NCBI GenBank assembly: GCA_030704615.1
Contig: CM060733.1
Location: forward strand, 55,800,001 to 55,864,000
From: Takakia lepidozioides
Taxonomy: Eukaryota; Plantae; Bryophyta
Length of the DNA stretch: 64,000 nt
Direction of reading: 5' to 3'
The stretch's first letter is position 1, and each line of letters begins with the position of its first letter. The position numbers and the translations under genes are program-made. Below are positions 6,361 through 62,217 of the stretch, piece after piece. A model generated the notes under the pieces. It did no database searches. It was not told where the DNA came from and saw nothing but the letters and a program-made list of their open reading frames with translations.

Positions 6361-7237
6361 AAGTACAGAGAAGGCTAGTGATAATTTATCACTGAACTTT
6401 GATGTTGCTATACTTCCAGAAAGGGTTGAAGAGGAACAAAGTAAGATGTATACTCTAGTAGAGGGAAGGTTAGAAGCAAGCCAGAGACCTAGAGAAGGAG
6501 GGACCTTGAATTTGCAGGGTTTTGTGCATGCCTCACACCTCTCATCAAAAGATAAATCAGAAGCTGAAGATCTAGGGAGGGCGATCTCAGCTATGGAACT
6601 GCAAAAACCAAGAAAGTCAGTGATGCAGGTCTTAGAAGCCAAGGAATACACAGTGATGTCACAATCTCAATCAAAGGACTAGCCAGAGACGCATATTAAG
6701 CAGAGCACTACAGATCTGGAAGCCAAGGAATCGAAGCAGGAGGCAAGGACAAATCAAGATTGACCGCCCATATCAGGCACTGCCACAAGGCCTGCATTTG
6801 GAACTAGCCAGGCTCAGTTTTCAGCATCTCAGGGAAAACTCACTTCACATGAGCTGATTTGGAAATTCTCACCGCTCTCTGTTCTGATGGAGTTGTCCCT
6901 TTATCAACGCTCCAAGGTGTTGCAGCAAGGCTTCCATGCCTGCTCAGAGACCCAGTTTATGGAGTAATTAGACACAATATGAGATAGATATTGCAGTGGA
7001 AATCCAGAAACCGCACGTAGAGATACTGTATCTGGTCCATTGAACATTTGGGTTTGAGTGTGCATAGTGTTCATATTGTCCAGGCTGTTACACAGAGGGA
7101 ATCTTCTTGATCTGGGATGAGGGAAACTGAAACTGAAGGGCCTCGACTATGTTTTCTTTCATCATCTTTGATTTGCAAATTCAGTGGAATATTGATGGAT
7201 CATGAATATATTCATGACTCCAGTTGTCATCTATACG

Positions 7238-7569
7238 TGTCATGCCCCGAGCATGCTCTGATCATCCCAGAGATGTCTGTATCTGGAAAGGACAAGGCTC
7301 CTTATCCGCCTCCATGAGGCCCAAACCTGCAATAGCAGGTCTGCCCAACATCAGTGGTTGAGCTCCCGAGTCCAACAAGACCCGCAGTGGCCGGTACCTC
7401 TTGCCTGCCGGTCCACTCAAAGAGAAAATGTCATCCTGGTTGTCTAACAAGACAACACCAGGTGTCACCATGGCGCGCTCAAAGGCTGGCTGCAGCTTGC
7501 CATGGCGCAGCCGTGACAGTCTTGACCCTCAAATCCGAGGACCCCTCTGCCACTATACCTTCCACTATC
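7238..7569 (-). mobile_element. Orphan ~330-bp fragment (protease region) of the DNMT-bearing Gypsy family
   Basis: Aligns by eye to 49326-49687 with scattered substitutions and one ~27-bp deletion; encodes RPLRVLLDSGAQPLMLGR. Confidence 0.92.
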
Positions 7570-10497: not shown

Positions 10498-10536
<39 letters not shown>

Positions 10537-27927: not shown

Positions 27928-29815
27928 GGTTCCCTGAACAAGGCCAGAGACGCACATCAGCACCATCTTCTGTGGATTGCTACGTATCTCACTCTGAATT
28001 GAAAATTGCCCTCCCCTATCCCTAATCTGTCTGTAAAAGATAGGCTGCTACTCCGTACGCGATGTCAGAGATTTGTTAGCAATACCATTCTAACTTGCTC
28101 GTATCCGAGATGTACAAGTCCTCCGCCTCAAGCTCCACAGAAACCACAAGAACCTGTCCAACCCACTTCCCAAAATCCTCCCTTTACTTGCCCCAAGAGC
28201 TCCCAGAGCAGAGCGCATGCAAGAGACAAAGGCGCAGGCAGAGGAGAGGAAAAAGCTGCAGTGGTGCAGAAGCGAAAACCTTGAATGGAACGGAACGAGC
28301 AAGGCAATATACCAAGGCGAGCCTAGGCAGGTGTCAGCTGACCAACCCCCCCGGAGGTTGCCACCTCCCTTTAACACGCCTACCTTTTTCTTTTCTTTTC
28401 TTTTTTTAACACCTTCTCTCAAAAAAGAAACACATTTTATTTTTGTAAAGTTATTTCAGAGCGGAATTCCAACTTTTATTCCCTTTTCCCTTCAATAATC
28501 TTCTGAATAAAGTCTTACCAGGGTCCTGCTCCCTGTTCATTTAAAAAACAACAAATCCCTTTTCCAATAATTTCTTTTTTCTTTTTTTTCGTTTTTGATT
28601 TTTTAACGGTTGCAATGGGTTTAATTTTTCCCTGTAATCAACTACCGTAGAGTCCTTCGATGTCCGGCGTTTATTAATTCAAATTTTGTTTATCTGAAAT
28701 ATTCAGAGAAGTAATGACCTCAATGTCGAACCGATAAAACAATTCTGATATACCCTAATTACCTCCCTAGAGGTAACTTAAATGTATGTGACCACCTTGC
28801 TTAAAAATTGTAAAAATCTAAATTTAGGTGCTGGACCTACTTTATCTGAAATAATTAAATATTCCAGCAATGCGACGGACAGCGAAGGACTCTACCGTAA
28901 ATGGCTTCATGCCCTTGGTGTAAGAAAAAAAAAACGGTTGCTTCGCCGAGTGTTTCAATCCTTAGAACAAAAAAAAATAAAAAACTAAAAAGCAAAAAGA
29001 CGAAAGGAAATGCAGAAGAAAATCCTAGGTTTGTTTGGAAGAAAAAGAAGGGCAAAAGTTGTCGTCAATTGTAACGGACTGACTCCCTTTGCAAATATGA
29101 CTTTCCGGGGCGCAGTTTCCCATCCCCGGACAGTTGTGGATAGCGACCTCGACACGTTCCAGGGCATATTCGCAATCCAAGCATGGGAAATTTTAGACAA
29201 TCTTACTCTCGGACTTTCCGGGAATTTCGACTAGACGAGTAAGCATTACTCGCGATCTCGAGCATTACTCTAAAATCCAGGAAAGAAGGTAAGATTGTTA
29301 GGTGCTACGTATAAGACGACGAGGACCATTCATTCGGGTTGCCAGCTTTTGTTTTGGTTTTTGTTTTTCTTGAGGATGAAGCCCGAAGCTTTTATAATTT
29401 TAAAGAACAATTAATTAAGTTAAATATTTATTTTTCAATTTGTAAGTTACGCCGGGGGAGATCAGGGGAGGGGGAGGAACGGCGTCCACGAACGGGGCTC
29501 CCGAGACACTTCCGGCATCGCATTCCGGCCGGCCCCGTAACGGAATCATGTACCCGAATCTGGGGCGGTGTGTACCTGTCAGTACATGAATAGTAACCTG
29601 GCACGTGTCCCATGTGTCAGACGACCGAAACTTTCTGGACGGATCAGCGGATGGACGAACAGGTACGACGAGAAGTCGACGAACGAAGATGGGGGCCAAA
29701 CGAGGGCCACATACAGTGAACCTGCAGAGCAGTATGCATCTCGCTGAGAGAGAAGAAAGCAGTAGACCTTTTTTAAGGGTTTATTGGTGTAAAGTATAAA
29801 GAAAGCGCTTGCCAA

Positions 29816-33301
<3,486 letters not shown>

Positions 33302-34121
33302 TTAGCTATAACATATGGGCATGCTCCATCTTTTCACTGTCTTGTCAGGGTGGTCAAGCATTTAGAATTTATTCCAATCCGTAAGTTCTATTCCAGACAA
33401 TGTAGCTCTTTCTACCTGGAAGAAAAATCAACTCGGAAATATGAGAGTTGTATTCTTGAGTTCCTTTGCTGTCTGTTGGTAAAGGTAGGCACAATTCAGG
33501 GTGTACACAAGCATTTTGATTGATTCAACTTTGAACCAATATAACTGTGTGCAAACTACATGAAACAACCATATACATGTGCCACCATTGGTAGATGAGC
33601 TACTACAGGTTTCTAATTCCTTCCGAACATGTCCCACGTCTGTTACCCCCTGGTGGCCATAGGTGAATGAGGGTGTCAGGAAGAGTCTCAACTGTAATCT
33701 TCTGGTGCAAGAGTGAAGAAGGCAGCAAGGAGCCAGCAAATTGAGAGAGAGAGACGGAGAGTCCTGCTGTACAAGAAGGCTGTTTATAATCAGCAGAACG
33801 CCTAGCTTTTTCAAACCTAATTCGGGCTACACAAAAGTGACGGAAGTCCATATGCCTCTGTCTTCACCGAGAGTCGAACTCAGGACCACATGGGGTGGTT
33901 CCTCTGATGATAGATCGTCCACAGGAACGAGGGTCGTTCATGTTTCGTTCGGGTTGGGGTTGTGAGGAAGGTCTGGGGTTGAAGAATGTGTGCGAGGGCC
34001 GCTTCGTGTCCAGGGATTTCGAGTCTGGGGTAGGTATTGATCGGGATTGAATATGTTGAGGAAATTCCTCCACAGCTGCAAAGGATCGAAGGGCCTGTGA
34101 AGGATTGAGGGGGTGGACAGT

Positions 34122-34871
34122 ATGACAGAGCATGAGCAGGAGCAGGAGATGGAGATAGAGGCGTTGCAAGCCATTTTGATGGACGATATTGAGGAATTGG
34201 AGAGCGGCGACAGCGGGCTGGGAACAAGTGCTCGTTGTTTCCAGATTACCATATCACCGAAGGATGATGATGAGGATGAGCCGACTGACATCCCAGTGCG
34301 ATTGGCTCTTGTGTTTGCGCACACTCCCACTTATCCTGATGAGCCTCCTCTTCTTAGTGTGCGCAGTTTACAAGGGGTGACAGTTGCGGATACCAAAGAG
34401 TTGCAGGAGAAACTGAAGCAGGAGGCAATGGAGAATGTAGGGATGTCCATGATGTACACTCTTGCGACGTCTGCCAAGGAATGGCTGCGGGAAAGATTCG
34501 GCCAAGACCGTGGCTCTTCTGATGTGGAGGATGATGACGAAGTAGCGAAGGAGGAGATTATTGAACCGCATGGAGAGGCCGTGACGATTGATACTTTTTT
34601 GGCTTGGAGAGAGCGGTTTGAAGCGGAGCAAGCACTCGAGCGGGCCAGGCTAATGCCAGAGGCTGCGCTGTTGGCTTCCAAAGAGAAGAGGCACAGTGGA
34701 AGGATGTGGTTTGAAGCGAAAGGTGGGAAGATTGTGCCTGAAGATGTGGATGAGGACGAAGACAAAGACCTTGACTTTGAGGATTTTGATGACGATGAAG
34801 ACCTTGATGAAGATGACATGCTTGAACACTATTTATTGGAAAAGAACGATAAGACTACCATGCCTGAGTGA
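34122..34871 (+). CDS. RWD domain-containing protein 1 (GIR2/RWDD1-like, DFRP2 family); coding region intronless
   Basis: MTEHEQEQEMEIEALQAIL, YPDEPP RWD motif, ENVGMSMMYTL, HGEAVTIDTFLAWRERFEAE, SGRMWF and an acidic tail. Confidence 0.92.
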   Translation: MTEHEQEQEMEIEALQAILMDDIEELESGDSGLGTSARCFQITISPKDDDEDEPTDIPVRLALVFAHTPTYPDEPPLLSVRSLQGVTVADTKELQEKLKQEAMENVGMSMMYTLATSAKEWLRERFGQDRGSSDVEDDDEVAKEEIIEPHGEAVTIDTFLAWRERFEAEQALERARLMPEAALLASKEKRHSGRMWFEAKGGKIVPEDVDEDEDKDLDFEDFDDDEDLDEDDMLEHYLLEKNDKTTMPE

Positions 34872-42700: not shown

Positions 42701-43739
42701 GAATTGGTTTTATCCAATAACTTAGCCCCAAAAGGGCCTGGGCTTTTGGCTCAGCCTCAAGACTCTCAAAGTTGGTAAACAGAGATATAGACACAATTCC
42801 CTTGATAGATTTAAGGAGAACGTCTCTCTGGTTAGAGAACCCCGGACAATGAATTAGAAAATGAATGTCTTCAGGTTGCCCACACAACGGGCAATTGCAC
42901 TCTCCCTTCCCTCTCTGCTTTTGTTTGCTGTTCAAAGGTAGGGCGCTTCCCCCCCCCCGAGTTTAAATTTCAGTCTAGATAGTGCCGAGAGTGGGTAGAC
43001 CCTTGAGGTCATCCATGATCTCTTCCCCCATGTCACGGACTAAAAACAAGTTTAGGGAAATTTTCTGCCTAACTTCATTTTCATCAGACAATATATTTCC
43101 TGGCAACAGACATGGTTTTGGACACTACACCTTTTAAGTCAGATTTATCCAGGGTCAAGACTTGTGGATTAAGATTCAGATCCTTGATAATCTCTTCTAC
43201 TCTCTATCTGATGTTGGACATATGTTGCATCTGACCCCACCATCTGACCTTGAATTCATCTATTCGGGAGCTTAAGGAAGGTATACCAAACTCACCCCGA
43301 ACAGCCACATTGGTTGTTTTGGAGCATGTTGACATGCACTCCTTAAGCATCCCCACTTGAATGGATTCTATAGACTTAGCTAGCTGGTTGGAGGTATCAA
43401 CCCATATTGCAGATGCGTACTCCAAGGCAGGTCTCATAACGCGACAAAGCATGGTATTCTTTGACCTCAGAGTTGATCCCTCTGCTCCCAATTACAATTC
43501 AAGGAAAACTCAACGCCCAGGTATGTGTAGGAAGGGAATCCACCGGAATCTCTTGGCTACCCCACTGCCACTTGAGATCACTTCCTCTCTCTCATCGGTT
43601 GTTGAATGCCACCACAACACATTTACTGCATGACGTTGTCTTCTAGCTCCCAAAGGTCACAATATCTCTTTGCGCAATCAATCAACTCCTGGAGGTTGGA
43701 AGGAGTCTCCCCTATGCCTGCGAAGTCATCCGCAAACAT

Positions 43740-43740
<1 letters not shown>
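42630..43740 (-). mobile_element. 5'-truncated non-LTR retrotransposon (LINE) remnant
   Basis: Minus strand: MFADDFAG (RT catalytic motif, ending ~43740), LQELID, MRPALEYASAIW...AVRGEFG (post-RT region), CPLCGQPEDIHFLIHCP (C-terminal zinc knuckle); frameshifted. Confidence 0.82.

Positions 43741-43744
<4 letters not shown>

Positions 43745-43777
<33 letters not shown>
43745..43777. repeat. (GA)n microsatellite at the LINE/LTR junction
   Basis: Directly visible. Confidence 0.9.
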
Positions 43778-43782
<5 letters not shown>

Positions 43783-43784
<2 letters not shown>

Positions 43785-44111
43785 TGATATTGGGATTTGC
43801 GGAAAGCCAGGAGGATGATGAGAAGTTGAGGGACTTAGGGCATCACCACATGAGCGGCACTGGAAGCAAACGCGAGACTATGATTGGTCACTTCATGTCA
43901 GTGCGGCACCATCACCTACCATACGAGAGGAACAATGTCGTGCGTTTACATATCGCTACACAACTACATCGCTGTCCAAAACCACACAACACATGTGCAC
44001 ACCACACACTAGTATACCACTAGTCCACCACTAGTCCAACCACTAGGCTACAACTAGTCAGTCACTAGGCTGCCACTATGCTGCCCACTATGGCAGTCAC
44101 TAGTCCACACA
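43783..44111 (-). repeat. 3' LTR (possibly partial) of the Gypsy element
   Basis: Minus strand: PPT-like AGCTAGGGGGGCGAT immediately followed by TGTGTGGACTAG at 44111; ends ...ATATCACA at 43783 (or ...TACA at 43779). Confidence 0.6.
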
Positions 44112-44371
44112 ATCGCCCCCCTAGCTGGTGCTTAGGTCCCTCTAAGTCCAGGTAGCCACAAGATGTGATAGTGACCATAGCTTCACTAAGTCCTCCACCA
44201 CTATCCCTACTACACTCAAACTCGATAGATCAAGAGGTCGGGTGCAAGAGTTGCCCCATCGTTAGTCGCCGTCTTGCAACCTGTGAACTTGAGCTTGGGA
44301 TCTCATGTATTGACTCCTATGAGCTTGGCCTCCCATGTCTTGTTAGCTGCCTCCAGTCATGTCCACTGCCA

Positions 44372-45720
44372 CTATCCCAAGCAGTGTGGACACAACCAAT
44401 CTCCGTCAGGAACCTTCTCAAGAGGTGGTGTCAAGCATCCCATATGCCAACCCCTTGAGCATCGATCACACACCAGCATGGTGGCTACCCCTTTGGCAGA
44501 CCCACAGAGCATGCACCTCAAACCTGCAGGTACCACTGCCAAGTTTGGATCAACTTTGCCATCGACATTGGGAAGGTGACATGGCGCACAATTACGCACA
44601 TGGTCCTTCCAAGTCATGCCATCCCGACCCTCAAAGATCAGGACCCCTGAGGGCAACACCTCTCGAACCCTCAGAATAACACGCCCTGCAGTAACATCCA
44701 GAGTCATAGGAGCAGTCTGCTGCAAATAAACATAGTCACCAGGGCTAAACCTCCGAACCCCAGGACGATATCCTCCACCACGTATAGTGGCATACCTCAA
44801 CGTATCACGGTGTTGTGCAATGGCAAGGTTCTCAAAAGCCATGGGCATGACTTTCTTGAACAACTCTGCACGCTGATCACATGCACGTACCCACACGTCC
44901 GGATCGTCAAGGTTAAGGACTTGAGCAGTGTCCCTACGAATGGCTGCAGGCAAATCCGGCTCTCAGCCAAAGAGAAGGAAATATGGTGAGAAGGAGGCAA
45001 GTGATGCTTGTTTGTTGAACGTGTAGCCCATGGCTAACCAAGGAACCTGAAGATCCCAATCTCCTAGGTGTCCCTTCTGCAAGCCATACTTGCGCAAACC
45101 CCTCTTCACCGTCTAAACAACTCTCTCTGCTAAGCCATCGGCCTCAGGATGATCCCAAGAAGTGGTGCGGTGGTCTATCAAGGCTTTATCACATAAAGCC
45201 TGAAAAACTCCCCCAAAAACTCTCTCCCTTGGTCTGTGAGTACCTCAGCTGGAGCACCAAATCGGCTAAGCACACAATCCAAGAATGCATACGCAGCCCC
45301 CTCACTAGCCTTGTCAGGCAATGGGACCAACTCAATCCACTTGGAGAAAGTGCTCCACCATCACCAACACATATCTGTGGTGGCGCATAGTCAGTGGCAA
45401 CGGTCCTGCGAAGTCAAGACTCCCCTGTAGCCTAATCCCATGATTGGTAAAGGATGCAACTGTGGTGTAGGGGCGTTGAATGAAGCACGCACCCTGTCAC
45501 ACACCATGCACCTAGCCACGAACTGTTGCACCTCTGTATGCATACCACGCCACCAATACTGCCCCTGCAGTAAACTGTGAGTGCGTCGCACTCCAAAATG
45601 CCCCAACTCCTCATGGGCATGCCGCACTAACCGTGCACACTGTGTGGGGTGAGGCATAATCCTCACCCGACCATCCTCCCACACTCGAAGTAGGTGTATC
45701 CCCTCCCACTTGAACCTCTT
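44372..45720 (-). pseudogene. Gypsy integrase with C-terminal PHD finger
   Basis: HHCC motif (HEELGHFG...CMVC), LDFAGP, LTDQG, HPEADGLAER catalytic blocks across frameshifts; C-terminus CMLC...LVCDRCSRGWHMGCLTPPLEKVPDGDWLCPHC (C4HC3). Confidence 0.92.
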
Positions 45721-45999
45721 GGCTCGTTGCAGGATCCGATCCCTCTCCCTGGCAGTCACAATGGCTGCCGTGTCTCCCGTGCGGAGGTAGTCCAACACAG
45801 CCGAATCCTCATGTATATCTCTGGCACCACCTAGCTCATCACTAGCCTCAGGGTCCTCAGACACTCCGTCTACAGTCATCCCTGTTGTAGGTCCAATCTG
45901 ACCTCCCGATGCCAAGATACACAAAAATACAGATGCGTGCCATCCCGGCACCATCTCCTCGTCCGTCTCACCATGCCACCGAGCTCCAGTGTCATCCTG

Positions 46000-47345
46000 C
46001 TGGCTCATGCATGGATTGCGACTCAATCCATCCGCATCCCGATTGACCAAACCGGTCGATGCACAACCTGAAAGTCATACTCCTGGAGTATAAGTGCCCA
46101 CCGTGCAAGCTTCCCCGTAAGCTTGTCTGACTCCATCAACCACTTGAGTGGCTGGTGATCCGTGACAAGGGTGAAAAGATTGTCGTATAGATAGCACCTG
46201 AAGTGTGCCACGGCCCACACTGCAGCTAAGCACTCTCCCTCATATGAGCTGTACTTAGCCTCTGCAGCGTTGTTCGAGCGGCTAGCGTAAGCCAATACGA
46301 ACTCTCTTCCCTCATCATCCACCTGTGTGAGCACCGCTCCAAGCCCCAGCATGCTCCAATCCGTATGCAGCTGAAAGGGACGCCCCCTGATAGGTCGTCT
46401 CAAGATAGGCGCCGAGGTCAACCTCGCCTTGAGCTCTTGAAAAGCTCGTTCCTGCTCATCTTCCCACTGCCACTCCTGGTCCACCTTGGTCAGCTTGGTT
46501 AGAGCCTTTGCAATGGTACTAAATCCCTTGACAAACCGTCTATAATAGTTTGCCAACCCCATGAAAGCTCGAACTCGGCTCACATCCGTGGGGCGTGGAA
46601 TTTGTGCAATGGCCTCTACCTTAGTCTCTGTACCCCCAATCCTCCAGGATATATCATGTGACCCAGATACTCAATCTGGTTGTGGAAAAACTTGCACTTC
46701 CCCGGATCCAACTTCAATCCGTGCGCTCTCAAGCGCTCCAATACCACCTGAAGGTGTCTCTCATGCTCCTCCATCGTAACACTAAAGATGATGTTCATCT
46801 ATGTAGCACCGAGCAAAGTCCACCCCTGCTAGAATCCTATCCATGACTCTCTGAAACTCTGCAGGAGCATTCTTAAGCCCAAATGGTAAGAACCGCCACT
46901 GATATAGGCAATCCTTGCCGTGCTCATTGATCCCCCAGAATGCCGCCTGCTTGTCCGCCTCCTTGATTGGCAACTGGTGATATCCGGATCGTAAATCCAA
47001 AGTGCTAAAGGCCTTAGCATGCCCGATGGCATCAAAGATCTCCTCTGGTGTTGGCATGGCATACTTATCGGACTTGGTCTGACGATTTACAGCCGGTAAT
47101 CACCGCACATACGTCTCTCCGTCCAATTGCCATAGACATCCTTCTTGGCTGGCATCACTGTGGCTGAAGCATACTCTCCACCAGAGAGCTCCACCAAACC
47201 TGCCTCCCAGAGATCTTGAGTCCTCATCTGAATCAAAGACCTCTCCATGTCACTGTATCTATAGGGTCTCCGAAAGATTGGCGTGTCAGTGGCCAACTCA
47301 ATACGGATCTCTTGACCCTTCAGTGCTCCCAAGTCCTTCAAACTG
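46000..47345 (-). pseudogene. Gypsy reverse transcriptase and RNase H
   Basis: RMCGDYR, FSTLDLRSGYHQL, LPFGLKNAPAEFQRVMD, CYID(D) broken by an indel, IEYLGHMI, VRAFMGLANYYRRFV, LHTDWS, YEGECLA, TDHQPLKWL, LARWAL, DADGLSR. Confidence 0.95.
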
Positions 47346-47799
47346 AAGGCAAAGCAATTCCTGTAAGCCCTCAGGAACCGCCGTATACGTCGTCTCTCTC
47401 CTCCGGTGACAATGGGTCCAATGTCAGGCTCCCAATTGTCCTCCGTAACTGCAACCTTAAGTCCAGTGGGCTTAGAGGTAGAGGACGCGTCCAGTGGTTG
47501 CTATGTTGCAACCTCTTGAGCAGTACTCCCTGCCTGCTCAGTCAATGACAAGGCCTCATCCTGCCCCATCATCTCATCCTTGAGGACCTCCTCAACCCGA
47601 GAAGAATCCCCAACCTCATCCATCACAGCCGCCTTGGCTGCCAACTCCCTCTGAACCTCGAGCACCTCCCACGTGTGCCATGGATGCATGCACCCCGTGG
47701 TCCTCACATGCTCGCCCCCACTCACTGCCTGTACCGTCTCGGTAGGCAGAGAGACCATTGAGGGAAGTGTACTCCGCACTCTGCGTTGCTCAGCCAGAG

Positions 47800-48750
47800 C
47801 CAAGCTGATAATCCAGGTCAAGCAATTGAGATCCATTGCTTGCCCCAACACTTGACGACGTGATGCCTCAGAAAGAGACGACACCGCCGTGGTACCAGTG
47901 GTAAAACCCATTGCCCGCTCACGCTCGTCAGCATTAGGCTCCACTAACTGCTGCAACTGAGCATCCCACAGGAGGCCAGGTCCACTATCCCGGAAAGCAT
48001 GCGATCCTGGGAAGCTGAGCAGTGTAGGTAATGCTGCTCGTGGTTGACCCACCTTGTTGACCACTGCCAAAGGCGAACGGTCATCGTGTCTCACACGCTG
48101 AGACTGCCTCCCTGTGTCCAAATGTTATCCACTGTGAGATGTGCTGGCCGCTGCACCCCATCAAATGCACGCTTGAGCAGTGCGGGTGGCATCAAGTTAG
48201 TCCACCATAGCCGTGGACGATGAGCCCGTGACCCCACTGTAGCTGCATCTAGCAACACTGCTGACCCAAGCCACGACCGGACTTGATGCACACTGGCCAT
48301 CACCCTGGCCCGAGAATCGCCCATCAGTGGCACATTCTCCAAGATGTATGCTGGAGATACAGCTTGATGAAGCTGCAAGTGGCGCAAAACCCGCACCATC
48401 TCCCAAAACAGACCCGACCTCGAGTCTCGCAATCCATTGCCATGCCCGGCTGATGAATGCCCTTGGCAGGGCCAACCTGCCACTACCAGATCAATGGAGC
48501 CAACCCGCTCCAAATCCTGCGCCCCCAGCAACGAAATGTCTGCTGGCAAGGCCTGCTGATATCCACGAATTGCAGACACCGACAACAACTCAGGGTACCG
48601 CTGCACCAACTGAGCAACATGGCGAAGTGAAACGCGTCGTGCAGTCTCATCCCTCTCCACATACAGGTAACGCCGAACTCGTACACCTGCTTGTAACACA
48701 GCAGCCAATCCGGTGCTGATCCCGCCAAACAAGTCCAGAAGACAAATGCC
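47800..48750 (-). pseudogene. C5 cytosine DNA methyltransferase domain (DNMT3-like) within the retrotransposon polyprotein
   Basis: Motif I LDLFGGISTG (48718-48738), II YVE, III ADI, IV DLVVAGWPCQ (48463-48477), GLFWEMVR, VI YILENV (48331-48339), VIII AHRPRLWWTN (48196-48219), IX ERERAMGF (47903-47926), X RRQVLGQAM (47834-47848). One 1-nt frameshift near 48120. Confidence 0.93.
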
Positions 48751-49109
48751 TTCATCCGGATACTGCCACACAATAGGTGTGGTGTCCAATGGAGACAATT
48801 GAGGTGGTCCTGGTGCAATCCCCACACTCTCCTCCTCTCCTGACGGTACAAAAGCCTCCACCCAGGCTTGTTGCACCCGTCGATCAGCATCCCGCTGCAA
48901 ATCCTTGCTCGTGCCCCACAATGGAGTCTGAGCAACCATGGTAGGCAACTCCGCCATACCATACATGTCATCCTGCTCTCCCGGAGGTGGTACATCCTCT
49001 GAATGAGCATTGCCCTCAAGCAACTCTCTAGGCCAACTCACTGCCGCTGTGAATGCTGCTAGTGTCGGCATCTTGCCTCGCTGGGCAACCGCAACTCCTC
49101 CTATGAACG

Positions 49110-49805
49110 TCACAGGGAGCTGCACACGCCGCCCTCCCCTGACTGCCATGCAGGCCTATAGGAAGCTGACTCCTCCCAAAAATCCAGGGTGAAGCCCATG
49201 GGGTACAACACTGCCCCACCAACCAGGACATCGTATGAGACCGCGTCTGTCACAATGGCCTTGGCTCGCATCACTGAGCCATCTGTAGGGTGATCTGGCC
49301 GTAGTCTGATAGCCAACTCATGCCATGTCATGCCGCGAGCCTGCTCCGATCCTCCCAGAGACGTCTGTATCTGGAAAGGACAAGGCTCCATATCCGCCTC
49401 CGTGAGGCCCAAGCCTGCAATAGCAGCTCTGCCCAGCATCAATGGCTGAGCTCCCGAGTCCAACAAGACCCGCAGTGGCCGGTACCTCTTGCCTGCCGGT
49501 CCACTCAAACAGAAAATGTCATCCTGGTTGTCTAACATGACAACTCCAGGTGTCACCATGGCGCGCTCAATGGCTGGCCTAGCTGGCAGCTCCATCAACC
49601 TGGCAGCTGCAGCTTGCCATGGCGCCGTCGTGGCAGTCTTGATCCTCAAATCCGAGGATCCCTCCGGCACTACACCTCCCACTATCTCCGCAGAAGATGA
49701 AGTAACCTCCCCACTCTCACAGAGTGTAGCTGCCAGCCTGAACACCTCAGCTGGTTTTACCCCCGCGTCGCAATCATGGTAGCCGAGAACAATGGAGCCT
49801 GGCAC
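49110..49805 (-). pseudogene. Retropepsin-like aspartic protease of the Gypsy element
   Basis: VLLDSGAQ catalytic motif and the downstream YDVLVG motif. Confidence 0.85.
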
Positions 49806-51672
49806 ACAAATGTGGCCGCTCCTAGCAGGACACTAGCTGCCGTAGCCTTGGCAATACTAGGTAGTGGTGCTACCCGTGTAGCTCTCCCCAATGGCATAGT
49901 AATTTCCGCCTCGGTAACCGTCAGACGAGAACTAGGTGCCATGGATGGCGTCGACACTGTCTCCGCTAATGTGAATGACTGAGGAAGCCTAGCCTGACGG
50001 CTTGCCTCCCTACGCTGTGGATCCAACTCCACCTCTGCACCTCGTGGCTCAGGAACTCGTGCTGCTCCTCGAGTCACGGCTGCAGCAGACTCCACCTGCA
50101 CTAGTGGTAGTGCTGCTCCACACATGAATCCCATGCCTCCCATATCTCCTCCCTCAGGAGCAGGAGGTGGACCATCCGGCCTTAGAGCCGGTACCACCTG
50201 AGCTGTAGCCATGGCAGCGAGCCTCTGCTCTAGCTGCTGAAGCCGGTTGGCCATGCCTTGGTCAACACCCTGACCTCCGCGTCCTTGGCCACGTTGAGCT
50301 TGCCCTTGGCCTGCACCTCGTGGCTGGCCACCTCGTCCTCTCTGGGCTGCTCCACCTCGCCCCCGGCCACCATTGTTCCCTTGGAACTGGCCTGGGCGCA
50401 ACTCAGGATGCAAACCATAACACTGGGCCTCTCCATGCCCGTGCTTGCCACAATGCCCACACTGCAACTGTGCAGGCTGTGCATGTGCCGACCCTTTGCC
50501 TCCCTCTGGGCAATCCTTCTTGACATGGGGTCCTCCACATGTCCAGCACACCACATCCGCCTGTTGTTGGCCAGCAAATGAAGGGAGAGACCCCTGCATC
50601 TGAGGTCCTCTCTGCCCTTCCCTGAGCTTCACCTGAGCCCCCTTGTTGCCTTGAGCACGTTGAGGTAGTGGTTGGCTAGGAGCACCACTACCCCGTGGTG
50701 TCTCCTTAGCAAATCCCACCGTGACCACTCGTTCCTCCACCATGTTGAGCTCTATCCGCTCTACCAGCAAAAACACATTTGCTAAGGTGGGTTGGGCCGC
50801 TTGTAAGAGAGTTGCATCCCGCACCCTTCTCCTCAGTTCCTTGTCCAATATCCCATACCAGAATTGGACTGCCTGAGCTTCCGTAACCCCTTGGGTTACA
50901 TTTATCAAGCGCCTCATGCGAGTGAAAGCCTCCCTCAAGCTCTCGGTCGGCTTCCGTTGGAACTCTTGCAAGCTCCGCAACTTCTCTGTCCTCACCCCTT
51001 GGTAGTTCCCTCTCTCAACTCTTCGAAGAACTCCACAACAAGGTTGAAGGCAGGCACGGGTGCTAGTGCTGGTGCGGTAGTGGCTTGGGTGGACGTCGTA
51101 GCTACTGTACCACCAGTCCCACTGCTGCTTGCTGAAGCTGCCGGTGCAGCGGCAGGTGTAGCCACTGCCCTCGTGGCTCTAGTGCCCCTAGTGATGGAGA
51201 CATAGTCGGGTGACCAGTACATCCTCCACTCCTCGATCTCAACCTCATGCCCCCGACTGAACTCATGGTAATCATCCATAGGTGGCCCCTCAAGGTGCTG
51301 AAATAGCCCCTTCCATGCCATGAAAGGCGTAAATAGTTGTGGATTGCACATTTGCTGCAAATCACACCAACTATCAAACTCTTGGATAAAATCATCCAAC
51401 TCGATGGTGCCCACCGCCCCAGAGTACCTTCGTGGCCCCTTGGTAGCTCCATACATCTCCTCCATTGTGTCCCACAACAATGGCAAAGAAACAACTTGCA
51501 CCGCCGGTATGAGTCCTCCTGATTCACAATCCGAATCAGAACCTTCCGTAGAAGACACAGGAGGTGAAGATGGCCTAAACTGCAGACCTCGTCTCGTGTA
51601 CCCACTAGTATCGCTAGTGCTCGAACCGGCACTGTCCCCAGCAACTAGTGGCACCTCCGTGTTGACACTCAA
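49757..51672 (-). pseudogene. Gag with two zinc knuckles (frameshift near 50995)
   Basis: LQEFQRKPTESLREAFTRM (retrotransposon gag motif), CWTCGGPHVKKDC, CGHCGKHGHGEAQC, RGG-rich nucleocapsid tail. Confidence 0.88.
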
Positions 51673-52379
51673 CCGGTCATGAACATGTCCCTAACCCCCT
51701 CTCCACAAGGTAACCGGGTAGAGAACCTGTTGCGGCTTATGGTTTGGAATACTAAGTTCCTAACATAGCCTACACCTGTACCTGCATCCACCGCAAGCAC
51801 TCCTATGGTTGGCTGGTCATCACCTCCAACCTCACCACAGGAGAAACAATGATGGTCTGGCTGGTCATCACCCCAGCCTCACCATCGACAGCATGCTCTA
51901 GGACTGGCTGGTGATCAAATCCGGACCAATCACCTATAAAAATAAGCGCCCACACAAAACTAGCATGGCGCACAGTCAAGCATGCAGGTATGGAGGGGAT
52001 CCAAACACAAGAAATCAGAACGACAACTCCCCCACACCAAAAACAACTCCACGGTGTTGCTCCTGCAAGGACACCCCAGCCCAAACCCGGACTGACTCTT
52101 GCCTCCACCTACGGAAAGGTCTTGGCCTAATGAGAGGGTGGAAACTACGAGGAAGAGAAGCTAAAGCAATGCCTAACCCCAGCATGCCCTCATCCCAACA
52201 CTCTTCCTCTCCTCTCTTCCCTCACTTGCATGACCATGGGAATATCATGAAGATACTCCTCAAACCACCCTCCACGAGCTTCAAAATTCGGCCTTCCAGA
52301 CCACATGCCAGTCCTTAGGCAGTCCACCAGTGCCTCCACGAGTCAGCACAGGCCGTCCACAGGTCAACACGGGCCACCA

Positions 52380-53550
52380 CAGACCAGCACAGGCCCACAC
52401 AGCTCACTGGTCACAGCCGTCACAGTCCCACAGGCCACTGGGCACAGCCTGTCACAGCCCGTCACAGCCCCACAGGCCACTGGGCACAGCCTGTCACAGC
52501 CCCTCACAGCCCCAAAGGCCACGGGCACAGCCTGTCACAGCCCCTCACAGCCCGTCACAGCCCCACGGGCCTCAGGCACGGCCTGACACAACCCCTCACA
52601 GCCCCTCACAGCCCCAAAGGCCTCAGGCACGGCCTGTCACAGCCCCTCACAGCCCCCAAGGCCACCGGCGTAGCCCGTCACAGGCCCTCACAGCCCGTCA
52701 CGACCCCGAAGGCCACCGGCACAGGCCCTCATAGCCTGTCACAGCCCCGAAGGCCACTGGCGCAGCCCGTCACAGCCCGTCACAGCCCTGAAGGCCACCG
52801 GCGCAGCCCAACACAGCCCCTCACAGCCCCAAAGGCCTCAGGCACGGCCTGACACAGCCCCTCACAGCCCGTCACAGCCCCAAAGGCCTCAGGCACGGCC
52901 TGACACAGCCCCTCACAGCCCGTCACAGCCCCAAAGGCCTCAGGCACGGCCTGTCACAGCCCCTCACAGCCCGTCACAGCCCCAAAGGCCTCAGGCACGG
53001 CCTGTCACAGCCCCTCACAGCCCATCACAGCCCCAAAGGCCATGGGCACAGCCCGTCACAGCCCGTCACAGCCCACAGGCCACTGGGCACAGCCTGTCAC
53101 AGCCCCGCACAGCCCGTCACAGCCCCACAGGCCACTGGGCACAGCCTGTCACAGCCCCGCACAACCCGTCACAGCCCCACAGGCCACTGGGCACAGTCTG
53201 TCACAGCCCCTCACAGCCCGTCACAGCCCCACAGGCCTCAAGCATGGCCTGACACAGCCCCTCACAGCCCCAAAGGCCTCAGGCACGGCCTGTCACAGCC
53301 CCTCACAGCCGTCACAGCCCCAAAGGCCTCAGGCACGGCCTGTCACAGCCCCTCACAACCCATCACAGCCAAAGCCTCAGGCACGGCCTGTCACAGCCCG
53401 TCACAGCCCCACAGGCCACTGGCACAGCTTGTCACAGCCCCACAGGCACACAGCTTGTCACCCCCGCACAGCCCCTCACAGCTCGCCACAGCCTGACACA
53501 GCCCGTCACAGCCCCACAGGCCACAGGGCACAGCCCGACACAGCCCCATC
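52380..53550. repeat. GC-rich minisatellite (11-bp CCCGTCACAGC-type units forming ~37-48-bp higher-order units) in the Gypsy 5' leader
   Basis: Dozens of (G/C)TCACAGCC units, e.g. CACAGCCCCAAAGGCCTCAGGCACGGCCTGTCACAGCCCCTCACAGCCCGT repeated 52820-53040. Confidence 0.95.
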
Positions 53551-53979
53551 CATGGCCGCTCTGGCAGTTTAGCCATTTCTCCAAGGGGTTTAGCCACGCC
53601 AAGCTAGGGTTTGTGTCTCTTGGACTCTAGGCTTCTTTCCACTGAGCTATGGCGGCTGTGAGGAAATCAACAAGGTATTCTTGCTCTTTCGGCTCCCACA
53701 CACCACCATAGTATCCCTAAGCCATGAGGTGGTTGCCACAAACCAAGCCTTCTTTCTCACTTAGCCTCCCCAAACACGCCACTAAACTCAATGGCAAACA
53801 ACCAAGCCCTGCTGGTTCCCAGCCCTTGTGAGCACTCATTCAAGCACTCTCCTTGGCCATAACATCTGTCTTAGAGCCTATTTCAGCCCCCTACACCTGC
53901 TGCTTCAAGAGTTGCGCTCCCTTCAAGCTTGAAGTTGAAACCGCAACTCACATAGGCCCTACAAGTGCTTTTCTTTCAC

Positions 53980-54400
53980 TCCAAGTGGAAACCAGCCCTA
54001 GACCTTCCGTTCTAGCTCTCTAAAGCTTGAAAACAAGAGCCTCAATGGGCTGAAGGCATGCTCCACACATGCCCCACTCTCACCATAAGAGAATCAGCTC
54101 CTTTGCTTCATTTCTTGCACCCACAAACCTGAAAATACAAGCTTCAGCAGGCTGAAAGCATGCTCCACATGCCCTACAGGGAAACCAGCCCCTTCCTTCC
54201 TTTCTTGCACTCCCACACCTGAAAGTGCAAGCCTTTACCAGGCTGATAGCATGCTCCACACATGCATTGCCCTCACATAAGGGAAGTCAGCCCTTCCCTC
54301 TTCTTTGCTTGCCTTCCAAGCTTGAAGATGGAAGCTTCAATGAGCTGAATACATGCTCCACACATGCAACCTCTTCACACAAGAGATATCAGCCCCCTAT
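53980..54400. repeat. Degenerate ~100-bp tandem repeat
   Basis: GCTGAA(N)(G/A)CATGCTCCACA recurs at ~54049, 54152, 54243 and 54343, each with a preceding CAGCCC...TTGC...TGAA block. Confidence 0.7.
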
Positions 54401-57400
54401 CTTGGCTCCTTGGCTCCTTGATGCTCTCTAAGACAAGACTAAGCACTCCACAGCCTTTGCCAAGCTCCTCAAACCCTAAGGCTTACATTTCCAGCCACAA
54501 GACACTTCTCTTGTGGTGCAAGAGCTCTTCTTCCAAGCTCTGAAACCCTAGGTGCACATTCCATGGCCTTGCCGCACCTCTTAGCTCCTGTTCCAGCCCT
54601 GCTCTTGCCATGACAAGAGCCCTCTCAATGCTGAAGCTCGAGATTGAAACCCAATCTCACCATACTCCACAAAGTGCACTGATTTGCCCCAAGCCAAATC
54701 AGCCCTTTCGCTTGGTCTTGCAATCCTTCACACAATGAAAGCTCGCATTCCCAAGTTCAGTTCTCAGCTTTGCCACCAAAGCCACTATAACCTGCTCTTG
54801 ACTGGTCCTCTTCCCAATCGTGCTTGCTCATGCATGTACACAATCTGAAACCATCAAGGTGCTCTGGAATTACCTGCAGCATGGTGCTTTCATCTCTGAA
54901 GCTGAAGATCGAATGCCAAGGTCTACCACCTCGTAACCCACATCGCCTCCGCTTCTAACAACCAAGAGCTCCACGGTGCTCCTTGCATAACAACTTGGTT
55001 TCTCTCATTCTCAAGCAAAAACCACAAGTGCCACAACTAACTCGTATCTGGCACTCACAGATACGAGCTCATCTTTCTCGAGTGATAAAGAAGAAGAATA
55101 CAAGCACGAGCTCACAAATCTGAAGCATAAACTCATGCATATATAACCTCATCACTCAAATACAAGTCAAGCCAAGTGCACCCCACGCCATGGGGAATCC
55201 ACACTACGGCGCCATAGCTAGGCGCGGTGAGGCTCAACTCGAGAAAGATGAGCCTCCCGCACTTGCCGTGAAGATAACCACTCCAGGGCCTAAATCTGCC
55301 TTGACCCCTGGATTGACACTTGGGCCAATCCCAAATGTCAATATGTAAAAACTAGCTATTTCCTAGCTAGTTTCACACTAGTGGCAAAATAACTTGACAA
55401 CAACCATCAACGCCAAAGAAAAGTATGGCTGACGTGGTGCGGACGTGGAGCCTCTCCGCGGAAGTCGGATTTCCAAGGACTACCGCCTGGAAATCCGAAA
55501 TGTTAGGGAATGTCTTTGCCGTGTTTCGATCCTTCCCGCCATGGAGCTCGTGATCTCTGTCGTTTACCATCTCTCTCGATCGTCGTTTCTTCTGTCCCTT
55601 CTTGTCTCCTTATGCACACTGGATTGCCGGTCGTGTGGTAGCCGTGTGGTGGTCGTGCTGACATGTAACTACGTTCTATTACTATCGCCCCTTATATTCC
55701 TAGCCAGGGACTTCCACGTCATTGCCTCTTGTTGTCGCTCGTGTGATAAGGCCCTTAGTCATTTTGGCAGGACTAAACTATAGCTCTTCCCCACAACGCA
55801 CGATCGAAACACATTGAATGACGGAAAATCATCCTGTGGCGTGTCAAACCTCCTTGACCATGCGTTGCATATTCAGCCACGTATGTCGATAGACCGATAT
55901 TGCACAGGGTAGATCATAGGCATCACAGATTAAGCGCAGCCTTCCATGTACCCGGCCCACCATTTAAGGGAGGAAACGGACAAAAATGGCCAGGTATGAT
56001 TCTGACTTCCATGCATGGGGTGGCAGGGCCCGGTCGTCGAGTTCCCGTGTCGGTAGCGTAGCCCGATAAAATGGGAAGAGAGCTCGTCCGCAGAGTACCG
56101 CGAATTGAACGCAACTCCACTTACCTGCCACGTCACTCGTACCTGCAGCACCCTGCAGTATAGTTGACCCTACCTTACTGTTACCTGCTTATGTGTTATT
56201 TCTCTGTAAATGTTATGGTTTTGATATTCCGCAAAAAAAATACATTAGAAACCATGTCAAGAGTGTTAAGTGGTTAATTGTTAGTTTATCCTACTCTTCA
56301 TAGTGTTAACGCACCTCCATACTAGTTAGATTCCATAAAGAGGCACCTCCATAGTAGTTAAATTCCATAAAGAGACGTCCCCAAAATAGAGCATCCATTC
56401 ATGCTCATCCAAAATAGAGCATCTATTCATCCATTCATGAGGTTCAAGCTGCCATCCACTCTCTTGTGAAGTGTTTAGCAATCCAGAAGGCAGTGTTTTC
56501 AGCTAGGCATTCTACTTCTCAACAAACCGACATTCTTTCATATTTCCAACCTAGTCAAAGATTAAATGTTATATTTCATTGGCATAACCGGGTTTACTGG
56601 CCTCTCATTTTAAGACAATAGGGTCTTCAATGGGCACGTGCGATGTGGCCGGTGGGCCCTGCGCACGGACGCCCGGCTCCCCCCACCCCACCCGCCGCTG
56701 CGCGCGGTGGCCCAGCCGGGGGCGCGGCTACAACAACCGCGCCCGCGCCCACTCCGCCCGCGCCCCCGTCCGCCGCGTTGCCAGTCCCCCATCCATGAGT
56801 CCGCTGCCCTCTAGTCTGCCCACCAGTCCGCTGACGGCGCAGGATCTCCACCGTCCGTTCCCATAACCCATCCGAGCCCTCCATTTTTAGGGCTGCGAAA
56901 ATTGCAATGATCTTGCCACCAAATCCTGGCCGCTCTCTTTTGACGTCTATTTGTTGTTCGATGTTGCGGTAGGCGTTTCCATGCACACAATTGTTCCTCT
57001 TTTGCGCGCGATGTTCATAATGATGATGAAGCGTGTGCTTGAACATGAGAGGACTGTCTCGGCACTACAGCCACCATCGTGCATATGCTTCCACTATTTT
57101 TGTCTTCTTGTTGTGCTTTCGGGAACCTTCGTTTTATGGTTTGGTTCTATGTCATAAATATGGGAATGCGGAAATCTGTCCTCGATAACATCCTCTGCTT
57201 GTGATCCGTCGTGATACGTATAGCCCCTTCGTACCGCATCCCTCATGAGAGCCTTCACAAGTTTAGTTCGTTAAAGGAACCCCATGGGTAACATGGGCGT
57301 GAAAATGGCGGAAGCGTATGCACATGAGGGCGTGTATTGCAAATTTCGTATTGGACAATGGGACTGTTTATGTGACCAAGTATAGCGGCTTGCATCCGTC

Positions 57401-58581
57401 ATGCATAAGTTGTGGAAAGGGTGGAGAATCTGAAGAAACCCAGCTTGTGATGGATCCACATGGTATTATATAAGGGATGGCAGCACAAAAAAGCAATTCG
57501 AGTCGTCACGGAATACCATTCAGTCATAAGGTCCTCAACTTGCTGAATGCAGATGTCTAAGCCACGACGGGAGTAGGTGCAGAATGCGGGAGTAGGTGTA
57601 GAATCGGTACATTGTCGCATTTGCCAGGAGACGGATCAGGTTGAGACAATTGCATCTGCAAATGCGCGTGGATGTTTGAGGTCCGTTGTGTCGCGAGTCT
57701 GTTCACAGTGGTTCCGCTGGCCTGTCAGTGCTCCGGATATTCCCCTTATCGCATGCATAACAGTCAGTTTGGAGGCGGTCTGCTGGAAGTCCGTCTGTTG
57801 GGATATCAGTCTGTTGCACTTGTGAATTTGTCAGTCTGTTGTGTCGGAAGTCTGTTGCAGTAAGTTTGTTCGACTTCTTATTTTCCCTCCGGTCAGTCTT
57901 TTGGCTTGTTCTCTCGCCAGTCTGGCGAAACGTCCGTCTGCTGGACAGTTCTCTTCTACGGATATCAGTCTGTTGGACTGTGCATACATCAGTATGTTGT
58001 GCCGCGAGTCTATTCGCAATGGGTATGTTCGACTTTCCTGTTCTCCCCTTATTCTCTTTCGTCTTCATTCCGCCCGCTTCTTTGCAAACCAGTTTGCTGA
58101 ACTGGAGGTGTGCTCGACAATCGTTCCCTAATGGATATCACTCTGTTCGCCTGGTACTTTGTCAGTCTGTTCTGCTGCCAGTTTCTTTGCAGTGTGTCCG
58201 CTGGCAGGGAAGTGCCTCCAATATGAAGCCGCTTTGCCTCGGCTTTCCCCTTTCTACTTCTACTTTCTTATCATGTTCCCTGTGTTGACTCCATTCTCTT
58301 CCCGCCTGTTTCTTTGCATTGTTTCATTTTCCTCTTTGCGTTTCCATCACCGTAACAAAAGACGGCCGTTCTTCCCCAGGTGTGGAGAGTCGCGGTGAGC
58401 CGCGAAGCGTCACAAACATGCTCGCCTTCGTAACAACTCGAAGTTCATCGGCTCAGTGAGGTTCTCACTTGCTATGGTGTTTCCATTCCATTCTGTGTCC
58501 TCTTCTTGCTTAGGGTGAGTCTTTTCATAGGACTTCTGTCTGTCGCTCATTGTCCTTGCACCCTCGTTTCATTCTGCAGCG

Positions 58582-59623
58582 ATGGAGGATGCTTGTGAAA
58601 AGGGTGGAGCGGACTGGGTGGATTTTGTGCACCAAACCAGACTGAAGAAGGAGCGAAGGTACTGGTACTCACCAGAGGAGTTTGATCATAAAATAGTGGA
58701 AGCATTTGTAGACCTCCGCGTTCGGAAGCCCAAAAACTCGAATTGGCAGAAGGACAAGCTCTTCTGTCCCTTCTGTGAAGAGGTTATCAAGGACAAAATC
58801 CTATTAAATCGGCATTGTGTTGACACGGGTTGCAAGGAGACTGTTGCAACGATTCCACGGGATTTCAAGCCTTGGCCGATACTGAAAGAAATATCGATTG
58901 TCAAAGAGGCCACAATGCGCATCCGCGGATCAGTGCTTGACCCCCGCACTTTGGAATTAGACGAAGTACACGCACGGTATGGTGTCCATTCTAGTGGCCC
59001 GTCAATGGAGGATTTGCAAGTGTATGGAACGCCGGACGCTGCCAGAAAACGTAAATTGAGTGATGGGGGCCCAAAAAAAGGAGAGGCAAAAAAAGGAGAA
59101 GGCTGCAAGGTCTGCTCGCGAGGCAAGGGCAAAATCCACGCAACAAACTGAACCCCGTCCAGGGCGGCAGACCCACACCATCAGTGCTGATACTGAAAGT
59201 GAATCTGCTCAGGGCGGGCAAACCATTATCCGGAATGATGACTTCGAAGGCCTGGAAGGGGTGACAAGTCCAGTGGACATTGACTTGCCTGACCAAACTG
59301 GGCAGCAGACTCACACAAATATCGTGACCCATGCCAGAGGTTTAGGGTCAAAACCAAAAACTCAACAGAGCACTGAAGGGCTAGTCTGCCCTGGCACATT
59401 GCGCCTCGTTGACTTTGGGTTTTTCCCACCAGAGTGCCCGCCAATTGGGGATCCAGACTTCTTCCGTTATTTCTACAGAGTTGCCCAGTCAGGTCCGCTA
59501 CGCACATTCATCCGACAGGCGGAACAGAATTGGTTGAACAACTTTGAAGATGAAGATGACGATGAAGAAGTAGAGGAGGTAATGGTCAGTTTGACCGCCC
59601 AGTCTGTTCTCTATGCTGTTTGA
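58582..59623 (+). pseudogene. Uncharacterised protein with a putative Zn-binding motif, frameshifted near 59070
   Basis: Preceded by a pyrimidine-rich CAG acceptor. Contains CPFC-x11-RHC-x4-C, a basic NLS-like RKRK and an acidic DEDDDEEVEE stretch; two overlapping ORFs 58582-59151 and 59060-59623. Confidence 0.45.
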
Positions 59624-61699: not shown

Positions 61700-62217
61700 G
61701 TGTGCCTGAAGTGGAGCCAGACAAAAGGGGGAGGAGCACTGTCTTGTAAAGGTGATCAGAATCACCCTCCATGCCAAAAAAGCTTCTTCCGCCTACCTTG
61801 CATGCATGGTAAGTTGCTCTTGCACCAGACATGAGGACATGAACAGGTTGGTGGGGGGGGGGGGATTTTAGAAGATAAAACTGGTGAAAGAAAATCAATT
61901 CGGAAGGGAGAGAACGAACCTGTGGACACAGAAAGATCGACCACCCGTGCAGAATGGTGGCTGCATGACTCCAGCAGTATCTGCATGAACGCTAGGGTTT
62001 TTTCCTTTGCACCTCTCCAGGGAGTGCCATCTGGTCTCTTGAGAGTCTGACTGGACTGCATGAAGTTGTACAAAATGTCATCGACATGCGGCTCATATGG
62101 GAGGTTGACGAAACAACCCTGGTCAGAAAATCTCAAAGCTGCGGACGGAGGATGGTGTCTTTGAGGTGCGAATCCTCCGCAGGCAGATCGCCTCGAACAT
62201 CCTCATCTGCCAAAGAC
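61700..62217 (-). pseudogene. Fragment resembling the SAM-binding half of a beta-class N4C/N6A DNA methyltransferase
   Basis: PWRGAKEKTLAFMQILLESCSHHSARVVDLSVSTG, then an intron-like gap, then ATYHACKVGGRSFFGMEGDSD. This parallels the N6_N4_Mtase C-terminal pattern HP..KP..L...LI...S..GD.VLDPF.GSGTT..AA...GR.FIG.E.D. The splice acceptor appears mutated (CAA rather than CAG); the catalytic DPPY/SPPY motif is not visible. Confidence 0.6.

Follow-up and report, generated by a model that had tools for sequence, protein, structure and literature searches.

A Ty3/Gypsy retrotransposon of Takakia lepidozioides belongs to a family carrying a DNMT3-like methyltransferase domain ahead of a conserved stop codon

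We analyzed a 64,000-nt stretch of the Takakia lepidozioides genome (assembly GCA_030704615.1, contig CM060733.1, positions 55,800,001 to 55,864,000, forward strand), referred to below as the window. On its minus strand lies a Ty3/Gypsy retrotransposon of about 11.5 kb (43936-55399), flanked by a 4-bp target-site duplication, ACAA. Its domain order is Gag-protease-DNMT3-like methyltransferase, an in-frame TAG, and then reverse transcriptase (RT)-RNase H-integrase-PHD, the coding part spanning 44372-51690. Judged by sequence comparison with its relatives, the methyltransferase (DNMT) is a family trait under purifying selection, and the stop at 47503-47501 is a feature of the family, not damage.

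Methyltransferase domain, family and the copy in the window

The original prediction of a Ty3/Gypsy element with a DNMT3-like domain was borne out by the Pfam match to DNA_methylase (E 3.8e-13) and by the closest PDB matches of the window DNMT, which were DNMT3A/3B/3C (E 5e-10), ahead of DRM (1.6e-5) and HhaI (3e-4). All six motifs named in it, from I to X, are at the places given: LDLFGGISTG (48738-48709), GWPCQG (48477-48460), LENV (48342-48331), RPRLWWTN (48219-48196), ERERAMGF (47926-47903) and RQVLGQAM (47857-47834), all on the minus strand. The domain itself is, however, not intact, as a frameshift near 48122 splits it. The AlphaFold model of the unbroken domain from a metagenome relative (locus L003) reached a predicted local distance difference test (pLDDT) score of 90.9, with DNMT3A as the best fold match (TM 0.71). 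In an alignment set that was itself picked by the profile, the catalytic Cys was kept in 311 of 312 sequences and the motif VI Glu in 312 of 313. Atlas searches gave no matches other than DNA_methylase clusters.

A search with the DNMT returned 56 relatives, up to 79% identical, the named ones coming from Marchantia, Calypogeia, Sphagnum and Closterium. A profile search returned 143 proteins, and the 120 matches listed added Haematococcus, Chromochloris and Cymbomonas. At 50% clustering, 531 representatives scored E <1e-30, not all of them necessarily members of this family. No named vascular-plant match was present among the DNMT homologues listed, which is weak evidence, and no protein named Klebsormidium was among the matches found. 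The gene annotation of Marchantia polymorpha includes unbroken Gag-protease-DNMT frames of 1278-1281 aa. The 80 metagenome loci showed two arrangements: type A, with the DNMT before RT or after protease (most of L001-L058, L070, L073 and L074), and a chlorophyte-type arrangement, type B, in the order RT-RNase H-DNMT-integrase-PHD (most of L059-L072). Type A formed one clade (support 0.993 for DNMT and 1.0 for RT-RNase H) in trees of the 64 elements that have both domains, and the two trees agreed on the inner order, with the Closterium-type branching first. Because of this agreement, the DNMT appears to have travelled with the element and to have changed position once; the trees were built with FastTree and rooted at the midpoint, so the direction of that change is not proven.

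We compared nonsynonymous with synonymous substitution rates (dN/dS; dS for the synonymous rate alone) in the four type A pairs with dS <2 that either link different lineages or consist of unbroken copies. The DNMT gave 0.14 (L043/L044), 0.12 (L044/L045) and 0.16 (L003/L001 and L003/L007). The window/L007 value was 0.06, near saturation, and most comparisons of the window with relatives are saturated at synonymous sites. For comparison, RT gave 0.05 and protease 0.09-0.25, and sister dead copies of the moss type gave 0.5-0.6, as expected for decaying copies.

A one-off capture, nested insertion, mis-assembly or algal contamination is barely credible as the source of this architecture. Break points in the window copy do adjoin homopolymer runs of at least 3 nt more often than background (8/11 vs. 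31%), and some may be assembly errors. Yet the same order recurs in more than 40 loci and in named bryophyte proteins, which refutes an artefactual architecture, and the target duplication is intact. The flanking RWD gene has its best named matches in Calypogeia (76%) and Marchantia (72%) and groups with bryophytes, on the moss side, in a 40-sequence tree of this one gene (support 0.97). The three outcomes that had been named beforehand as fatal to the idea thus did not materialize: relatives carry the DNMT in the same order, its dN/dS of 0.12-0.16 is not that of a neutrally evolving domain, and the contig has a bryophyte neighbour gene.

Several relatives depart from the common pattern. In many type B relatives (e.g. 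P0281-P0341) and in Closterium P0037, the residue preceding the catalytic Cys in motif IV is E, S or D instead of P (as in 'EC'), the Cys being kept. In the protein P0051, a related DNMT lies within a DIRS-like RT region and is accompanied by a domain of the Dam type (Pfam PF05869), and in P0307/P0308 the DNMT precedes an RT with no RNase H match. In the element trees, the window's element falls outside a group formed by the Marchantia and Sphagnum-like ones (the enclosing clade has support of 0.74-0.87). With RT about 78-80% identical among bryophytes, ancient paralogues or horizontal transfer could account for this.

The extent first proposed for the element, 43783-51672, had to be revised, since the ACAA flanks and drops in depth place the ends at 43936 and 55399. 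Summed contig depth, which does not equal copy number and was used only for family abundance and evenness across DNMT and RT, fell in run X1 from ~1e6 to ~1e3 past 55399 (X5 and X6 fall likewise) and was 669 at 43902, vs. ~1e6 within the element. A 5′ end at 55663, suggested by a chance TGACA/TGTA match to the 43783 end, was ruled out because depth falls off at 55399. With 97,484 contigs matched in run X1, the family is highly abundant, and depth in that run is even, at 0.90-1.22 M for DNMT and 0.87-1.16 M for RT-RNase H. Run X12, putatively RNA, contains diverged copies and was left out of the analysis. Further Pfam matches were RVT_1 (E 5e-14), RT_RNaseH (2e-35), Integrase_H2C2 (1e-15) and PHD (7e-11), with the protease match weaker than the cut-off (E 0.009). 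The order protease-RT-RNase H-integrase and the Ty3-type RT place the element in Ty3/Gypsy, the second open reading frame (ORF2) of relative L044 having Ty3 Pol as its best PDB match (E 3e-98). The TG...CA ends come with a duplication in the 4-6 bp range, namely 4 bp in the window and at 7/7 loci with both ends; in L027 and L029 the second base at the 5′ end is altered. Two identical full long terminal repeats (LTRs) were absent in the window copy, which has a part A at one end and a part B at the other. Its 5′ leader is 3.4 kb long, with a 1.1-kb tandem array. The features are:

43932-43935, no strand: target-site duplication ACAA, left copy (matching flanks)
43936-44112, minus: terminal repeat part B, single copy here, ending ...GCACGACA at 43936 (B end and polypurine tract region match relatives; depth)
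44113-44122, minus: polypurine tract AGGGGGGCGA, immediately before B (same motif in L036, L018, L046, L044, L045)
44381-44515, minus: PHD finger at the integrase C-terminus, ORF2 ending at 44372 (Pfam, alignment)
44540-45640, minus: integrase, with HHCC zinc finger at 45621-45499 and a core broken by frameshifts/stops (Pfam)
46056-47434, minus: RT and RNase H, with frameshifts near 47091, 46793, 46627 and 46051 (Pfam)
47495-47503, minus: in-frame TAG and CAA CCA, a CAR-YYA readthrough context, between ORF1 and ORF2 (sequence)
47774-48780, minus: DNMT3-like C5 cytosine methyltransferase, motifs I, IV, VI, VIII, IX and X, frameshift near 48122 (Pfam, PDB matches, alignment)
49134-49520, minus: aspartic protease, LLDSGA at 49466-49449 (sub-cut-off Pfam match, motif)
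49760-51690, minus: Gag, with two CCHC-type knuckles at 50548-50510 and 50461-50420 and a frameshift near 51010 (78% to the N-terminus of Marchantia P0004)
52411-53547, no strand: tandem array with 10/51/92-bp periods inside the long 5′ leader (high depth on either side)
55067-55082, minus: primer-binding position, 16 nt perfectly complementary to 55253-55238 in A, predicted self-priming (sequence complementarity)
55083-55399, minus: terminal repeat part A, 317 bp, starting TGTCA at 55399 (depth, comparison with relatives)
55400-55403, no strand: target-site duplication ACAA, right copy (matching flanks)

ORF1 of this copy has about four frameshifts (near 51010, 49770, 49130 and 48122), and ORF2 has seven (near 47091, 46793, 46627, 46051, 45423, 45347 and 45205) in addition to stops in integrase. 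With ~11 frameshifts, one of them within the DNMT, the copy as assembled reads as dead, in keeping with the suspicion that it was inactive or mis-assembled; since 8 of the 11 adjoin homopolymer runs, decay and assembly error are inseparable here.

Stop codon between the methyltransferase and the reverse transcriptase

The DNMT had been predicted to lie between protease and RT on the same strand. It does, and it shares a frame with RT, but the TAG at 47503-47501, followed by CAA CCA, divides the two. A stop followed by CARYY was present at this junction in 40 of the 44 loci with sequence on both sides of it, while three more were off by one C-to-T change and one had no stop; many of the 44 are the same or sister copies, which weakens the count, as they amount to about four deep lineages and not 44 tests. 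As a control, the same context was found after 15 of 579 premature stops. The exact CAR-YYA is retained in the window and L003 (CAA CCA), L043/L044 (CAG TTA) and L045 (CAA TCA), despite unrelated flanking linker sequences. In L044, two open frames of 1369 and 1047 codons are divided by this single conserved stop, and 34 of 43 Gag-protease-DNMT proteins end 40-145 aa past the DNMT. As the stop is conserved, the DNMT belongs to the Gag frame and not to the integrase-PHD protein.

This arrangement does not sit with the 'self-contained reader-writer module' envisaged at the outset. The PHD ends the ORF2 integrase and the DNMT ends ORF1, on opposite sides of the conserved stop. The PHD finger resembles those of CHD4, KDM5 PHD1, ATXR5 and BHC80, which we take to be readers of unmethylated H3K4. 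The bryophyte PHD, however, has no acidic residue before the first Cys, whereas many type B PHDs have one. Occupying the position of the chromovirus chromodomain, the PHD more likely steers integration than serves a reader-writer role.

In tobacco mosaic virus (TMV), CAR-YYA by itself directs readthrough (PMC2194720). The family's stop is likely leaky, with readthrough yielding ORF2; the DNMT would then be made at the level of Gag, and RT and integrase-PHD in amounts of a few per cent. On the 3′ side of the stop, RNA structure was weak (z −0.7 to −2.7 vs. mononucleotide shuffles). The same element might instead express ORF2 through splicing, an internal promoter or re-initiation, which we regard as improbable. 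Tca2 shows that local signals do not have to bring about readthrough of an in-frame stop (PMC2194720), and moss-type copies have an ATG at +7. This ATG is, however, missing in the window, L003, L043, L044 and L045, and the frame and CAR-YY have been kept across saturated synonymous divergence.

Split repeats and a proposed route to integration

Two repeat plans were observed, A-coding-B-A-B in L029, L036 and L051 and A-coding-B in L018, L027, L046 and the window. Both B/A and A/B junctions were seen at loose ends in host sequencing runs, and the B/A junction CACGACA-NN-TGTCA is kept from moss-type loci out to L044/L045. Part B starts immediately after the polypurine tract. Complementarity to a mid-A stretch extends over the 15-16 nt that follow A; the sequence involved differs among the window, the Sphagnum-like group and L044, and the corresponding folds gave z values of −7.2, −3.8 and −4.2 across these three lineages. 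No tRNA-type primer site was seen in the element, and the window has no tRNA genes. Neumann et al. (2019; PMC6317226) define self-priming by at least 10 nt after the 5′ repeat complementary to the repeat, as is seen in these three lineages. This suggests a Tf1-like self-priming hairpin. From the anatomy, the working LTR would be B+A, starting after the polypurine tract and ending before the primer site, with integrase using the internal B/A junction. A-coding-B copies could arise when both junctions are cut, via a circle with one repeat, or when B-B recombination follows later; they would be dead ends because the 3′ A needed for strand transfer is missing.

The domain order, the conserved stop with its context, the split repeats A and B, the 4-bp duplication and purifying selection can be read from sequence, and on them we build the following model. 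A first frame would encode Gag-protease-DNMT, and RT-RNase H-integrase-PHD would be produced by readthrough of the TMV/SIRE1 type. As the DNMT sits on the capsid frame ahead of a likely leaky stop, it would be packaged in particles at Gag level, that is, in bulk, and be released by the protease. Reverse transcription would be self-primed as in Tf1, and the packaged DNMT would likely methylate cytosines, probably in CG, of the new complementary DNA (cDNA) prior to integration. The PHD would act as the integration-targeting domain, and integrase would cut at the internal B/A junction, giving A-coding-B, or A-coding-B-A-B from an end-joined circle. This chain as a whole, in which a leaky stop sets DNMT at Gag level and the packaged enzyme methylates cDNA before integration, is the explanation we lean towards by a modest degree.

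A number of observations weigh against it. Constraint is weaker on the DNMT (0.12-0.16) than on RT (0.05), and the CpG observed/expected ratio of the element (0.53) equals those of the window (0.49) and a kinase gene (0.51), with no extra depletion and thus no sign of extra self-methylation. The homologue sets were all found via the DNMT, which places sister lineages without it outside the search. The large moss-type (Sphagnum-like) group has CAA CCC instead of the exact CARYYA, with its ATG two codons on (+7); L056 has no stop, and Closterium-type elements are one ORF. A self-primer of at least 10 nt was present in only 9 of 20 cases (the copies are decayed), and A-B-A-coding-B, which the circle model allows, was found for none of the 18 A repeats upstream of coding sequence. 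Finally, the Klebsormidium domain gave no methylation in yeast, a result that its authors call inconclusive (PMC5890265).

The DNMT might, alternatively, be active in the nucleus in trans, methylating chromosomal copies as self-restraint, or other host DNA, and not particle cDNA. We consider this unlikely, though it has points in its favor: a Gag-level amount exceeds the need of one cDNA, de Mendoza et al. name slowed transposition and accidental host methylation as options (PMC5890265), and the moss host DNMT3 performs de novo CG/CHH methylation (PMC6453930). However, the DNMT has no targeting domain of its own, its place in the fused protein of chlorophyte-type elements, with RNase H on one side and integrase on the other, suggests the cDNA complex, and a benefit common to all copies would be weakly selected per copy. 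It seems still less probable that the domain serves the integration route, binding or methylating the CG-containing B/A junction and so controlling circle cutting or protecting the internal junction of A-coding-B-A-B copies from re-cutting. The conserved CACGACA-NN-TGTCA and the co-occurrence of split repeats with a DNMT here and in KnitGypsy-Dnmt3 (PMC5890265) would fit this. Yet such a role is pure conjecture, dinoflagellate DIRS elements and other LTR lineages acquired DNMTs separately, and the ends of chlorophyte-type loci are not resolved.

What transposon-borne DNMTs do has stayed unsettled since 2018, as the dinoflagellates and Klebsormidium that host them are difficult organisms for experiments. 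With unbroken frames in Marchantia polymorpha, a tractable model with methylation mutants, the question becomes testable. Under the packaging model, a leaky stop conserved in this way would put DNMT into particles at capsid stoichiometry. The integration route is predicted from the split repeats and self-priming, an anatomy that may also explain why LTR-pair finders would miss such elements. These elements may also have led to overcounting of DNMT3 in bryophyte and green-algal genomes. A broader reading, which we put forward tentatively and with considerable doubt, is of a Gypsy clade spanning the green lineage, mis-annotated in Marchantia as host genes, with a route so far undescribed for integrase elements: self-priming, an attachment (att) site inside its own LTR, a leaky stop that moved DNMT3 out of Pol and into the Gag frame, particles packed with methyltransferase and insertions arriving methylated. 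Land plants would then have a source of de novo methylation that is carried by transposons.

The remainder of the window holds genes and other repeats. A second, internally deleted fragment of the same family (7187-7569) matches the protease region, with 94% identity over 253 nt to 49326-49578. Nested long inverted repeats at 9266-11410, one of 446 nt (98%) and one of 162 nt (96%), include a repeated unit of 24 bp and look like a foldback or miniature inverted-repeat element. Repeats without an ORF of at least 130 aa (20855-21774), possibly a pseudogene, presumably correspond to PLS-class pentatricopeptide repeat motifs. Uninterrupted single ORFs encode a protein kinase (26779-28047, 422 aa) and the RWD-domain protein (34101-34871, 256 aa). 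The insertion site of the element (43204-43935) contains non-LTR RT-like pieces without Pfam match, whose FADD motif we take to be that of a non-LTR RT, a GA microsatellite and the TGTGATA end of another repeat. From 56530-58000 and beyond, another repeat family of lower depth starts near 56600. ORFs at 58531-59151 and 59060-59623 had no Pfam match, and a short minus-strand frame at 61762-62202, ending VVDLSVSTGS, had no Pfam or Atlas support; its end presumably resembles motif I of N4/N6 amino-methyltransferases.

Comparison with known systems

In the literature searched, such elements are described so far only from algae. No description of land-plant DNMT-Gypsy elements, or of their stop, PHD or self-priming, was found in the open literature, with subscription papers, figures and the main 2018 supplement outside the search. 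According to one opinion paper, land plants such as tracheophytes lack them (PMC6338049). Papers from 2025 and 2026 write 'streptophytes' citing the 2018 work, and their tree figures may include bryophyte sequences.

The nearest described system is KnitGypsy-Dnmt3 of Klebsormidium nitens (PMC5890265), compared here through its published description. It is likewise a Ty3/Gypsy element with an unrearranged DNMT3-like domain, purifying selection and an A-coding-B-A-B plan; our family has an unrearranged DNMT3-related domain with its key residues, and the same plan in L029, L036 and L051 and in junctions from host runs, the window copy being only A-coding-B. The KnitGypsy-Dnmt3 DNMT is stated to share an ORF with RT and RNase H (PMC5890265), whereas in the present family it ends ORF1 before the conserved stop; among our relatives, only Closterium-type and chlorophyte-type elements have it in the RT/RNase H ORF. 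Its host is an alga, while the present family is very abundant in a land plant, and the available text of PMC5890265 does not mention a PHD, self-priming, readthrough or a 4-bp duplication for it.

Other retrotransposons also carry C5 methyltransferases. SymbioDIRS-Dnmt3, which methylated CG de novo in yeast, and SymbioLINE-Dnmt use tyrosine recombinase or LINE machinery, SymbioLINE having its DNMT in ORF1 as the present family does (PMC5890265). EpiLTRs (bioRxiv 10.64898/2026.05.21.726589) have a DNMT4-related enzyme with DAM and a chromodomain. Troyka elements (CG...CG ends, 3-bp duplication, animals only; PMC12440569) were ruled out by the TG...CA ends and 4-bp duplication.

Tf1/Sushi and the plant Tcn1 chromoviruses share with our family predicted self-priming and a chromatin reader at the integrase C-terminus; the available text of the source mentions neither PHD, methyltransferase nor Marchantia (PMC6317226). 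The present family differs in its PHD in place of a chromodomain, its split repeats and its DNMT. Where Tcn1 and Chlamyvir have a chromodomain after integrase, no Chromo Pfam match was found, and the PHD is there. In comparison with DIRS-order elements, the family has a DDE integrase and 4-bp target duplications, and no tyrosine recombinase was seen. DIRS-order elements with split repeats are presumably those named Ngaro and PAT. The A-coding-B-A-B plan of split direct repeats is common to both (PMC5890265). An in-frame stop followed by CAR-YYA is shared with readthrough of the SIRE1/TMV type; stops lie at gag/pol in murine leukemia virus (MuLV) and Tca2 and at pol/env in SIRE1 (PMC2194720, PMC2829016), and at DNMT/RT in the family described here.

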